Shown piece after piece: positions 26,677 to 28,594 of a stretch of DNA of 40,102 nucleotides (position 1 is the stretch's first letter; each line of letters starts with the position of its first letter). The translations under genes were made by a program, and so were the position numbers. This stretch comes from Longimicrobiales bacterium (GTDB lineage Bacteria > Gemmatimonadota > Gemmatimonadetes > Longimicrobiales > Gaopeijiaceae), in NCBI GenBank assembly GCA_965218295.1, contig CBDCKN010000011.1:1-40102 (forward strand), read 5' to 3'. Below the pieces are notes generated by a model. It was not told the DNA's origin. It searched no databases and saw nothing but the letters and a program-made list of their open reading frames with translations.

Positions 26677-27390
26677 GTGTCGGACCCTCCATATCCGAGT
26701 GACTCGGCAGAGCTGGAGGTACAGAGCCTCGGCCTCGTCCCGTACGGGGAGGCCCTGAAGCTCCAGGCGGATCTGGTAGCGCGTCGGCGCGCCGGTGAGG
26801 TACCGGACCAGCTCCTCCTCCTGGAGCATCCCCACGTCATCACCCTCGGCACAGGATCTAATCCCGAGCACGTGCTGGCCGACGACGCACGCAGAACTCA
26901 GCTCGGCCTCGAGCTCTTCGAGGCGGGGCGGGGAGGTGACGTTACCTACCACGGTCCGGGCCAACTCGTGGGCTACCCCATCCTGGACCTCAAGCCCGAT
27001 CGCCAGGATCTGCTCGGCTACTTGAGAGACCTCGAGACCATGCTCATCGCCGCCTTGGAGGAGCTAGGGGTCCGTGGGGGGACGGTACCGGGGCTGACGG
27101 GTGTTTGGGTGGAGGATCGAAAAATCGCGGCCATCGGCGTCCGTGTGTCCAGCGGTTGGATCACCTCCCACGGCTTCGCACTGAACGTCGACAGCGACCT
27201 CTCCTACTACGAGACGATCGTTTCGTGTGGCATCGCGGACCGCTCGGTGACGTCACTCTCCAGAGAGCTCGGCCGGCCCATCGGAGTCGCAGAGGTCGTC
27301 CCTGTCGTCCGCGAGTCCTTCGCAAGTGCGTTTGAGCGCGAGATTGGTGTTGGCGGGCCAACAAATGAGCCTACCTCAGAGGCGGTCTGA
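26677..27390 (+). CDS. lipB: Lipoyl(octanoyl) transferase
   Basis: LLEHPHVITLG, RGGDVTYHGPGQLVGYPI, KIAAIG, HGFALNV, CG. Confidence 0.95.
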   Translation: MSDPPYPSDSAELEVQSLGLVPYGEALKLQADLVARRRAGEVPDQLLLLEHPHVITLGTGSNPEHVLADDARRTQLGLELFEAGRGGDVTYHGPGQLVGYPILDLKPDRQDLLGYLRDLETMLIAALEELGVRGGTVPGLTGVWVEDRKIAAIGVRVSSGWITSHGFALNVDSDLSYYETIVSCGIADRSVTSLSRELGRPIGVAEVVPVVRESFASAFEREIGVGGPTNEPTSEAV

Positions 27391-27519
27391 GGTCGCTCAA
27401 GGGGCTATTGTTTTGGAGATCCCAAGGGCGGATCTCGCCCGTCTTTCCTTGTGTGAGTAAGAGAAAACAATCTGTTTACGGGCCTCCGACGGAGGGGTCG
27501 AAACCGGTTTCCACGATCG

Positions 27520-27587: not shown

Positions 27588-27616
27588 TTGACGTGAGGGA
27601 GGAGCCCGCCCATACT
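27588..27616 (+). promoter_or_regulatory. Sigma70-type promoter
   Basis: TTGACG (27588-27593), 17-nt spacer, CATACT (27611-27616). Confidence 0.7.
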
Positions 27617-27621
27617 GTAGG

Positions 27622-27970
27622 TGCGTTTCCGATGTGGTACGCTGATTCGATGGCGTTGGTCATCCCTTCATGCGGATCGCGAAACGTGATTCACCGGACG
27701 GGACGTCGTAGCGGTGAAAGCGAGCCGAGGATTGGACCTCGGTGAGTCGGCGGAGGAGTCGTTGGTCTCTGCTGAACCCTCCGGAGCTCGGAGGACCCGA
27801 AGTTGCTGACCGCGCAACAACGGGAGAAGGGAAGCTGAGTCAGTTGCCCGACAGAAGGTGAGCCGCAAGGCGATCTGGAAGATGGGCAGGACTCCAAGCG
27901 AGACGAAGCTTCTACCAACGAAATAGGAGCCCTTGAAGCGGCTTGCCGCGCCGAGGGCTTCTTTTTTTTT
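27622..27970 (+). ncRNA. Putative large structured non-coding RNA (~345 nt), family unknown
   Basis: Bounded by a promoter and a terminator, with no credible ORF. About 10 hand-identified helices, including long-range pairs 27654-60/27914-20 and 27663-69/27826-32, several G-U pairs and a GCAA tetraloop. Confidence 0.7.
27926..27970 (+). terminator. Intrinsic terminator
   Basis: GGAGCCCTTG/CGAGGGCTTC stem capped by GCGG-CTTG-CCGC, followed by T9. Confidence 0.85.
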
Positions 27971-28021
27971 GGCAGGGTTTTGCTTTTGCAGGCCTCGTAT
28001 CTGGTTCCGTGCACCGATTGA

Positions 28022-28594
28022 TCATTCGGGCGGGGCGTGCTCGAAATGATCGAGATAGCGACCGTGCTTGTCGCGCTGCTCTTCCAGCCAGACCTGGTAT
28101 CCGCTTTCGACGAGCCCCCCAGACGCCGTGCCCTCCTTGGCGGCTCGCGTGGCCAGGTGGTTGGCGTACTCGTTCTGCGCATGGCCGTCGTGGCCGCGAA
28201 TCCAGCTCCACCGGACTTCGTGCCCTGAGGCGATTCGATCGAGCTCCTTCCAGAGGCCCAGGTTGCCGATCTCACCTCCCTTCCGTCTCCACCCCCGGGC
28301 CTTCCATCCCGGGAGCCACTCCTTCATCCCCTTCACGATGTACTGGCTGTCCGAGACGAAGTGGACCCTGCACCGGCGCTTCCGTAGCAGAGTCAGGCCC
28401 TCGATCGCGCTTCGAAGGGCCATGCGGTTGTTGGTCGTGTCCGCCTCGGAGACCCAGTAGTCCCGGCGCACCCACTCATCACTTGTCCAGTACTCGACGA
28501 GACCTCCGGCGCCTCCAGGGTTGGCACGGGCCTTGAACTGGTTGCCGAGGCACGATTCGTCGGCGTAGATGGCGATCTCGGGCGGCTCCGTCAT
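28022..28594 (-). CDS. rnhA: Ribonuclease HI
   Basis: IYADESCLGN..NPGG, TTNNRM, SDSQY, W..GW...GW, WIRGHDGHAQNEYAN. Confidence 0.9.
   Translation of the reverse strand: MTEPPEIAIYADESCLGNQFKARANPGGAGGLVEYWTSDEWVRRDYWVSEADTTNNRMALRSAIEGLTLLRKRRCRVHFVSDSQYIVKGMKEWLPGWKARGWRRKGGEIGNLGLWKELDRIASGHEVRWSWIRGHDGHAQNEYANHLATRAAKEGTASGGLVESGYQVWLEEQRDKHGRYLDHFEHAPPE

Follow-up and report, generated by a model that had tools for sequence, protein, structure and literature searches.

A predicted, multiply pseudoknotted RNA family of Gemmatimonadota with a candidate self-pairing loop

The RNA gene between lipB and rnhA

The gap between lipB and rnhA in a Longimicrobiales bacterium (assembly GCA_965218295.1, contig CBDCKN010000011.1), analyzed here within a window of 40,102 nt that covers positions 1 to 40,102 of the contig, is the site of a stand-alone RNA gene on the + strand. 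A sequence-only reading of this DNA had proposed an undescribed, structured non-coding RNA (ncRNA) on that strand, and the proposal has held up: Rfam is blank for it, its helices covary, and its G-U pairs point to the same strand. We consider the existence of the RNA family practically certain. The gene, its signals, and its two neighbors are arranged as follows.

26677-27390, + strand: lipB, the upstream neighbor, outside the RNA (Pfam LplA-B_cat, E 4.7e-46)
27588-27616, + strand: sigma-70-like promoter, with the -35 element TTGACG at 27588-27593, a 17-nt spacer, and the -10 element CATACT at 27611-27616
27621-27970, + strand: the RNA gene, ~345-350 nt, counted from the predicted start through U9
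27926-27961 and 27962-27970, + strand: terminator, a long GC-rich hairpin followed by U9
28022-28594, - strand: rnhA, the convergent downstream neighbor, outside the RNA (Pfam RNase_H, E 1.4e-28)

TTGACG-N17-CATACT is the single promoter-like site in 800 nt, against a mean of 0.2 in shuffled sequence, and the promoter position is conserved among relatives: at least 66 of 78 have the -35 TTG 31-34 nt upstream of the start of the RNA model, followed by a -10 element of the form nATnnT. The sequence-only reading had picked out this promoter, the strong hairpin with its nine T at 27962-27970, and the lack of a credible open reading frame (ORF), and on all three it was right. A protein-coding reading of the gap was rejected, since its ~345 nt contain no credible gene and neither the ORF list nor a gap test on the alignment turned up a conserved ORF in the RNA gene (gap runs modulo 3 were of length 1 in 1756 cases, 2 in 497, and 0 in 409). 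The minimum free energy of the + strand is -149.8 kcal/mol (z -3.35, equaled by none of 100 shuffles), and the z score of the - strand is -2.41. The locus thus combines what defines a stand-alone small RNA gene, namely its own promoter, an intrinsic terminator, and no conserved ORF. A riboswitch or other cis-acting leader, which the sequence-only reading had also dismissed, is ruled out because rnhA, the gene that follows, is oriented convergently and the RNA has a terminator of its own. Just after lipB, at 27426-27440 and upstream of the RNA promoter, lies a terminator-like hairpin with a T-rich tail, as would be expected if lipB and the RNA were transcribed separately.

By word index, the stretch occurs in 21 public runs. 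Six of these are RNA libraries, drawn from three studies, and two of the runs are labeled sponge metagenome. Contigs from all six RNA runs lie on ~27616-27951 (at least 90% or at least 95% identity) with summed word depths from thousands to 1.6 million, figures to be read with the nature of such contigs in mind, which are strandless, have no true ends, may derive from relatives, and whose depth reflects expression poorly. Three of the six runs also have a contig on rnhA (28008-28100, depth 2.5-6.6), suggesting that they contained the organism itself or something closely related to it. Two further runs of unrecorded library type, which we took to be DNA, cover all 30 bins at depths of 2-157. 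No RNA-run contig covers 27400-27615 or 27952-28000, at best a weak hint of where the RNA ends, given that loose ends exist, that the flanks of relatives may differ, and that depth cannot rank genes. With contigs so limited, the RNA libraries support production of the RNA rather than a map of its ends. The case for its production is good, and the RNA is probably abundant.

No catalogued RNA accounts for this gene. Searches with Rfam 15 (4227 models) at gathering scores gave no match in the 40,102-nt window and none in 20 loci carrying relatives of the RNA; this was the check by which the sequence-only reading had wanted its novelty judged, and the novelty stands. With E raised to 10, the search added just two sub-threshold matches to miRNA models, both falling on the hairpin of the terminator and far short of their gathering scores (25.4 bits where 98 is required, 16.7 where 140 is), and even then no match to Ms1 or 6S in the window. 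RNase P RNA is ruled out, as there is no match to RF00010 and the genome's copy sits on contig C12 (268.3 bits). The same goes for tmRNA, with its tRNA-like ends and tag reading frame, for ARAGORN finds neither tRNA nor tmRNA in the window and the genome's RF00023 copy is on contig C1 (171 bits); the SRP RNA of the genome also sits on another contig. RNase P RNA and tmRNA resemble the RNA in being of similar size, pseudoknotted, and single copy, but they are encoded elsewhere in this very genome, whereas the RNA is missing from complete relatives. The exclusion of RNase P RNA, tmRNA, SRP RNA, and 6S RNA in the sequence-only reading is therefore borne out by model searches and, for a leader, by gene orientation. 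Phage and plasmid collections held no similar sequence. Full-text searches of the literature combining Gemmatimonas or Gemmatimonadota with ncRNA terms found no description of the RNA, and the main texts of two genome surveys from the Breaker laboratory mention neither the phylum nor these genes. The RNA family is absent from Rfam and, as far as we found, from published descriptions, and is in this sense undescribed.

Local helices and long-range pairings

RNAalifold found a compensatory change in 32 of 55 predicted pairs with 13 sequences and in 39 of 55 with 33 sequences. In alignment A4, which was fitted to the covariance model R1 (described below) and holds 79 sequences, 91.9% of cells pair, compared with 31-52% when the strands are slid against each other, and 39 of 41 pairs are compensatory. 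Alignment A6 was chosen against the bias of such fitting: it is a structure-blind MAFFT alignment of 78 full-length sequences, onto which we laid a hand-written structure of 79 pairs in 13 helices. Here 87.9% of cells pair, against 77.8% in shuffles (none of 500 as high, a significance overstated because the sequences are kin) and 37-48% in slid controls, and 71 of the 79 pairs have changes on both sides. G-U pairs are frequent, with 50 of 78 sequences having one at a single P3 position, and only the + strand fits them. The following local helices emerge, and we hold the core fold to be very probably correct.

27622-27632 with 27677-27688, + strand: P1, enclosing P2 and P3; 11 pairs, 10 compensatory, 81.5% paired, A4 agreeing
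27640-27642 with 27672-27674, + strand: P2; 3 of 3 pairs compensatory, 92.3% paired, the inner part poorly aligned
27649-27654 with 27659-27664, + strand: P3, GAUGGC/GUCAUC with a GNUG loop; 100% paired, 5 of 6 compensatory
27690-27701 with 27706-27718, + strand: P4, with a GACG loop; 11 of 11 pairs compensatory, 94.1% paired
27720-27729 with 27738-27747, + strand: P5, whose loop AUUGGA (27731-27736) forms PK2; 8 of 8 compensatory, 87.6% paired
27748-27755 with 27767-27774, + strand: P6, whose loop UCGUUGGU (27759-27766) forms PK1; 8 of 8 compensatory, 88.0% paired
27777-27782 with 27790-27795, + strand: P7, whose loop carries the palindrome GAGCUC (27784-27789), a candidate symmetric kissing loop
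27797-27806 with 27814-27823, + strand: P8, in two parts, whose loop UGACCGC (27807-27813) forms PK3; inner helix 92.2% paired, 4 of 5 compensatory
27831-27836 with 27907-27912, + strand: P9 in its long form, GAAGCU/AGCUUC, closing a hairpin at 27837-27894 that is capped by GCC-GCAA-GGC

The long form of P9 occurs in 16 of the 78 sequences, and the rest have a ~20-nt hairpin with a CACG loop instead; within the long-form clade, covariation can be seen by eye (UUGCCC/GGGCAG versus CUACCU/AGGUAG). The P3 motif CGAUGGCGNUGGUCAUCC hardly varies across the window's family and is missing from the shorter relatives of the family that we label f3; in the P4 loop GACG, the G, A, and C are nearly invariant.

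As the alignments show, no fewer than four long-range pairings (PK1, PK2, PK3, and LR) connect these hairpins with one another and occupy the P5, P6, and P8 loops together with the 3' tail. LR is less certain than the others, and a fifth contact, PK4, is tentative.

27759-27766 with 27914-27921, + strand: PK1, the P6 loop with ACCAACGA; 89.7% paired, 5 of 8 compensatory
27731-27736 with 27893-27898, + strand: PK2, the P5 loop with UCCAAG; 94.0% paired, 6 of 6 compensatory
27634-27637 with 27810-27813, + strand: PK3, GUGG of the P1/P2 junction with CCGC of the P8 loop; 96.5% paired, 4 of 4 compensatory
27665-27669 with 27826-27830, + strand: LR, CCUUC with GAAGG; 68.2% paired on locally misaligned MAFFT columns
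27942-27946 with 27865-27869, + strand: PK4, CUUGC of the terminator loop with GCAAG at the P9 tip; tentative

Each of the first four pairings changes its letters in step. PK1 switches from CGUUGG/CCAACG to CGCUGG/CCAGCG, UUGCUGG/CCAGCA, and UCACUGG/CCAGUGA, and in f3 UCGCUGG is found with CCAGCG in 7 of 7 copies and UCACUGG with CCAGUG in 8 of 12. PK2 takes the forms ACAGGAG/CUCCUGU, CUGGAA/UUCCAG, UUCAGG/CCUGAA, GUUUGA/UCAAAC, GCCUGA/UCAGGC, and CUUAGG/CCUAAG, with UUCGG/CCGAA in the f3 relatives, and PK3 appears as GUGG/CCAC, ACGG/CCGU, and GCGCAG/CUGCGC; eight pairs counted jointly, those of PK3 among them, gave 17-67% in slid controls. LR shows double changes by eye (CCGUU/AACGG, CCGCU/AGCGG, CGGAUC/GAUCCG), and since it crosses P1 and P2 it is itself a pseudoknot. 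The possible kissing contact PK4 hardly varies in its short forms (CACG/CGUG in 94-100% of cells) and reads GCAAG/CUUGC in 6 of the 16 long forms and GCGAG/CUCGC in one. A window-wide permutation test of PK1 and PK2 was too noisy to use (6.0 and 6.6 bp for a sequence's own strands versus 5.0 and 5.8 for crossed ones), and column counts were used in its place. We have assumed throughout that PK1 to PK3 form within one molecule.

Much of the hairpin inventory that the sequence-only reading had drawn up by hand reappears here with covariation support in 78 relatives: CACCG/CGGTG is P4, GCCGAGG/CCTCGGT is P5, TCGGCGGAG/CTCTGCTGA is P6, CCTCCG/CGGAGG is P7, and CCCG..GTTGC/GCAAC..CGGG is P8. Its overall plan, a fully nested fold of two domains, was wrong, for the fold is pseudoknotted, and both the pseudoknots and the palindromic loop had been missed. 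The proposed closing helix CGTTGGT (27654-60)/ACCAACG fails because the variable base of the P3 loop does not follow the A/G of CCARCG: 27649-27664 forms the local 6-bp P3 hairpin, paired in every sequence, and ACCAACG(A) at 27914-27921 pairs instead with the similar motif of the P6 loop at 27759-27766. The hairpin GGATCGCG/CGTGATTC likewise falls away, since its 3' strand belongs to P1, in which 27677-27688 pairs with the 5' end at 27622-27632. CCCTTC/GAAGGG survives as a pairing, at 27665-27669/27826-27830, and loses the nested role it had been given, LR crossing P1 and P2. The long hairpin of the second domain exists, confined to the clade of 16 of 78 sequences with the long P9.

This fold bears directly on whether the RNA might be a functional analogue of 6S or Ms1 RNA that sequesters RNA polymerase, one of the roles entertained in the sequence-only reading. 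6S RNA, which binds RNA polymerase and is a template for pRNA, is a rod closed by the pairing of its 5' and 3' ends, with a large bubble at its center, and Ms1 is similar in size to the RNA described here. Like these RNAs, the present one appears abundant, is non-essential, and stands alone with its own promoter, and the 6S model RF00013 is silent in the window's own genome, in five complete relatives, and in all 151 genomes of the window's family. That silence is weak evidence, since the same model detected 6S in just 4-5 of 14 control genomes. The RNA also differs from 6S and Ms1 in matching neither model, in its patchy distribution, and in its architecture, a multi-branched knot of nine helices without a rod or central bubble, in which the 5' end pairs locally rather than with the 3' end and most loops are engaged in pseudoknots. 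Furthermore, 67 of the 151 family genomes have neither an R1 match nor a 6S match, so the RNA does not fill a 6S gap, and we regard a polymerase-sequestering role as very unlikely. The 6S RNA of the window's family is either too diverged for RF00013 or missing. A sponge, the other role that had been suggested, also goes unsupported: with most loops used in intramolecular pairings, few GGA loops are left free.

The same density of pseudoknots, together with near-invariant nucleotides in junctions and loops, is typical of catalytic or ligand-binding RNAs, and speaks in favor of reading the RNA as a ribozyme or as a trans-acting ligand binder. We see no cleavage site, joint, or processing signal in the run contigs, the gene context indicates no substrate, and the RNA is dispensable in many relatives; we therefore consider this explanation improbable.

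Distribution, gene context, and loss

BLASTN found the stretch in 15 of 61 related genomes at identities down to 64%. The covariance model R1, built on the 5' half of the RNA from 13 sequences and 153 positions, matches 84 of the 151 genomes of the window's family (58 of the 110 high-quality ones) and 57 of its 81 genera, with a single match in 82 of the 84 carriers. The syntenic homologues that the sequence-only reading had asked for in the lipB-rnhA interval exist: of 34 loci examined in the window's family, 33 are preceded by a LipB match and 31 are followed by a convergent RnhA match, the contigs of the remaining three stopping before rnhA. Such regularity might suggest a local regulator, either by read-through of the terminator into an antisense of rnhA or as a processed 3' UTR of lipB, as the RNA of this family always lies just before the 3' end of convergent rnhA. 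The RNA has its own conserved promoter and a strong terminator, however, selection acts on its fold rather than on complementarity to rnhA, and 27 of 28 copies inspected in the families f3, f5, f2, and f7 sit at unrelated loci, which together make a local role exceedingly unlikely.

In a sample of the phylum, R1 matched 5 of 16 genomes of the window's family as well as the window's own genome and none of 135 in other families, a confinement that reflects the narrowness of the model, for searches at the level of order and class later found relatives. In the order-level sample, which had 50 genomes each from the families f1, f2, and f3, R1 matched 16, 2, and 30 of them, respectively (27 of 47 in f3 without its three genomes flagged as unpublished). 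The f3 copies score 30-58 bits, lower than those of the window's family, and number one to four per genome; a small hairpin replaces P2 and P3 in them, and P4 to P9, PK1, and PK2 are retained. The order lipB-RNA-rnhA-carA occurs in f3 at only one locus, in genome G046, and elsewhere the neighbors vary by locus. For a class-level sample we used a second model, R2, which had been rebuilt on sequences of f1 and f3; its matches were as follows.

f5: matches in 5 of 10 genomes
f7: weak matches in 2 of 35 genomes
f9: a weak match in 1 of 31 genomes
f4: matches in 0 of 28 genomes

The five f5 loci share the architecture of the RNA and have no lipB/rnhA context. Among public records of metagenome-assembled genomes, strong R1 matches came from one labeled Gemmatimonadales and one labeled Gemmatimonadota. 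A scan of contigs for the P3 motif was too unspecific to serve as a family finder, giving 118 loci from an estimated 4600 stretches; R1 run on 100 of these produced two strong matches (144.7 and 110.6 bits), and five more loci, at 19.6-26.3 bits in records from outside Gemmatimonadota, were taken as chance. As far as these searches reach, the RNA family has been seen only in Gemmatimonadota.

The RNA is dispensable. R1 gave no match better than E 0.24 in five genomes (four complete, one draft), with the complete genomes G007, G074, G079, and G080 being without the RNA, and in four of the five RNA-less genomes lipB and rnhA lie at most ~200 nt apart. In a congener of the window's organism, G002 (locus L145), a deletion of ~146 nt between two AGGG repeats, equivalent to ~27832-27977, removes the terminator and P9 as well as the 3' strands of PK1 and PK2.

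Several smaller observations belong to these loci. The junction of the G002 deletion is seen again in run X1 (library type unrecorded, taken to be DNA), where a contig has a loose end at 27831. G007 belongs to a genus that otherwise carries the RNA; in its place this genome has a stretch that looks coding and includes two direct repeats of ~230 nt, nearly identical to each other (L186, ~900-1500 of the oriented locus). G060 holds three copies of the RNA inside 3 kb (L232, 2832-5660), some in tandem and two identical including their flanks, with a DUF5715 ORF between copies 2 and 3. At the f3 loci L232-L251, nearly all RNA 3' ends read CCCCCGG...CCGGGGG followed by a conserved UUCUUGCAUCC, with no plain U run. 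The RnhA of the window has 190 residues, its RNase_H domain ending at residue 152, and the C-terminal extension of ~40 residues, with the 3' coding end of the gene (window 28022-28140), is conserved at the DNA level across genera.

The P7 loop and the nature of the particle

The loops of P7, P3, and P4 are among the few without an intramolecular partner, and that of P7 has the further property of being self-complementary. A palindrome of at least 4 nt is present in the P7 loop of 62 of the 78 family sequences, against 25.9 expected from shuffles, and one of at least 6 nt in 52 of 78, against 5.5 expected and a maximum of 14 in 2000 shuffles. The cores differ between sequences (AGCU, AAUU, UCGA, GGCC, UGCA, and GAUC, with CAUG in f3 relatives), the full forms including GAGCUC, CAGCUG, AAGCUU, (C)GAAUUC(G), GUCGAC, GGCC, UGCA, and GAUC. 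Even among the 18 distinct P7 loops that lack AGCU, five have a palindrome of at least 6 nt, with 0.86 expected (shuffle P 0.0006). In f3, 20 of 26 copies have a palindromic P7 loop (GGCC, CGAUCG, GAGCUC, CAUG, GAUC), and so do 16 of 21 distinct loops, with 7.0 expected. In 49 of 55 hairpins with a palindrome of at least 6 nt, the palindrome lies 0.5-7.5 nt off the symmetry axis of the hairpin, which means that it is not merely the P7 stem running on.

The central dinucleotide of the palindrome varies (GC, AU, CG) and yet remains self-complementary, so that the loop as a whole, adjacent central bases included, keeps its self-complementarity while its letters change, the sequence pattern of symmetric kissing-loop RNAs. 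Adjacent central bases cannot pair within one chain, an argument that has been applied to loop L9.3 of the OLE RNA, which switches between GGCC, GAUC, and AGCU and proved by cryo-EM to be a symmetric intermolecular kissing loop (Kretsch et al., in the part of PMC12286853 that deals with this loop). Because the switching of P7 matches the pattern of OLE L9.3, we infer that the P7 palindrome likely acts as a symmetric kissing loop between two molecules and would thereby make the RNA a homodimer. Conserved kissing loops build the RNA-only homo-oligomers of ROOL and GOLLD, and pairings in those RNAs that had first been detected by covariation proved to be intermolecular (likewise from PMC12286853, in part). 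As in those RNAs, some of the pseudoknot pairings described above might be intermolecular.

On this reading, the gene in the lipB-rnhA gap would be transcribed from its own promoter to its own terminator into a structured ncRNA of ~345 nt, which would fold as a compact, multiply pseudoknotted particle, would dimerize through the palindromic P7 loop, and would act as an abundant structural or scaffold particle and not as a regulator working by base pairing or as a decoy of the 6S type. We give about an even chance to the RNA being a compact, abundant, self-associating particle of the OLE/raiA/ROOL kind, in which high expression, the dimer, and a scaffold role are the parts that reach beyond the fold. 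That it represents a new class of natural quaternary-structure RNA of ~300-350 nt, RNA-only and possibly catalytic or ligand-binding, is a bolder proposition that we advance tentatively, at somewhat less than even confidence.

Large, intricately folded bacterial RNAs of unassigned function are rare, and those known, OLE, raiA, ROOL, and GOLLD, have of late revealed unexpected RNA-only assemblies. The whole OLE RNA measures ~600 nt, the raiA RNA ~200 nt, and ROOL and GOLLD ~600-800 nt, the last two being often phage-linked. The RNA described here shares with OLE, a Bacillota RNA, its large and highly structured nature and a palindrome-switching loop that resembles P7, and its ~345 nt compare with the more than 308 nt modeled for the 5' region of OLE alone (PMC12286853, in the portions on OLE). 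It differs from OLE in having no match by sequence or model, in its phylum, in the lack of oap-like genes near it, and in that its dimer is predicted from sequence. With the raiA motif RNA of Bacillota and Actinomycetota, described in part of PMC12968392 as very abundant, it has in common that it is stand-alone, conserved, and structured; it is larger, lies in another phylum among other neighbors, and has no Rfam match. From ROOL and GOLLD it is set apart by its ~345 nt, its chromosomal location, and the absence of any match in phage and plasmid collections.

The comparison with OLE and raiA also supplies what we see as the chief competitor to a self-associating RNA, namely that the RNA is the core of a ribonucleoprotein in the manner of these two, that its knotted fold serves as a platform on which one or more proteins sit, and that the P7 palindrome is a protein site or an extension of the stem. 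The nearly invariant, unpaired P3 motif and the P4 loop GACG stay free, as would suit bound protein, the sequence is at high depth in RNA-library contigs, and the flanks of the palindrome can close a tetraloop within one chain. No partner gene, however, is recurrent at the loci of the window's family, f3, or f5: contexts in f3 and f5 vary by locus, the MacB/FtsX permeases found at 3 of 20 f3 loci are common paralogues, and the neighbors in the window's family are housekeeping genes that remain adjacent in RNA-less genomes. The switching central dinucleotide, whose adjacent bases cannot pair in one chain, also argues for a contact between molecules, and a ribonucleoprotein core is in our estimate unlikely, though it deserves more weight than the other alternatives.

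A number of observations weigh against a self-associating particle. On fixed MAFFT columns the self-pairing of P7 is modest (74.3% versus 60.2% shuffled), 16 of the 78 family sequences and 6 of the 26 f3 copies have no palindrome, and its outer letters may instead form one or two intramolecular pairs that close a tetraloop. A naive scan of all alignment columns against each other gave many spurious two-state pairs that track clades and no new helix besides the P9b stem; for this reason we trusted slid controls and, among helices, only those that stack and show more than one or two types of pair. The kinship of the shuffled sequences, the limits of run contigs as a measure of expression, the lack of a partner gene, the dispensability of the RNA, and the truncated copy in G002 all count on the same side.

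Annotators gain a model of a gene that currently goes unmarked between its neighbors, and the family adds a large structured RNA in a little-studied phylum with few cultured members. The RNA is small enough for cryo-EM, its covariation-supported tertiary pairings are unusually dense, and the predicted dimer is testable. In the window itself, two P7 palindromes overlap at positions 27777-27793: CUCCGGAG, whose 8 nt span stem and loop, and the 6-nt GAGCUC of the loop.

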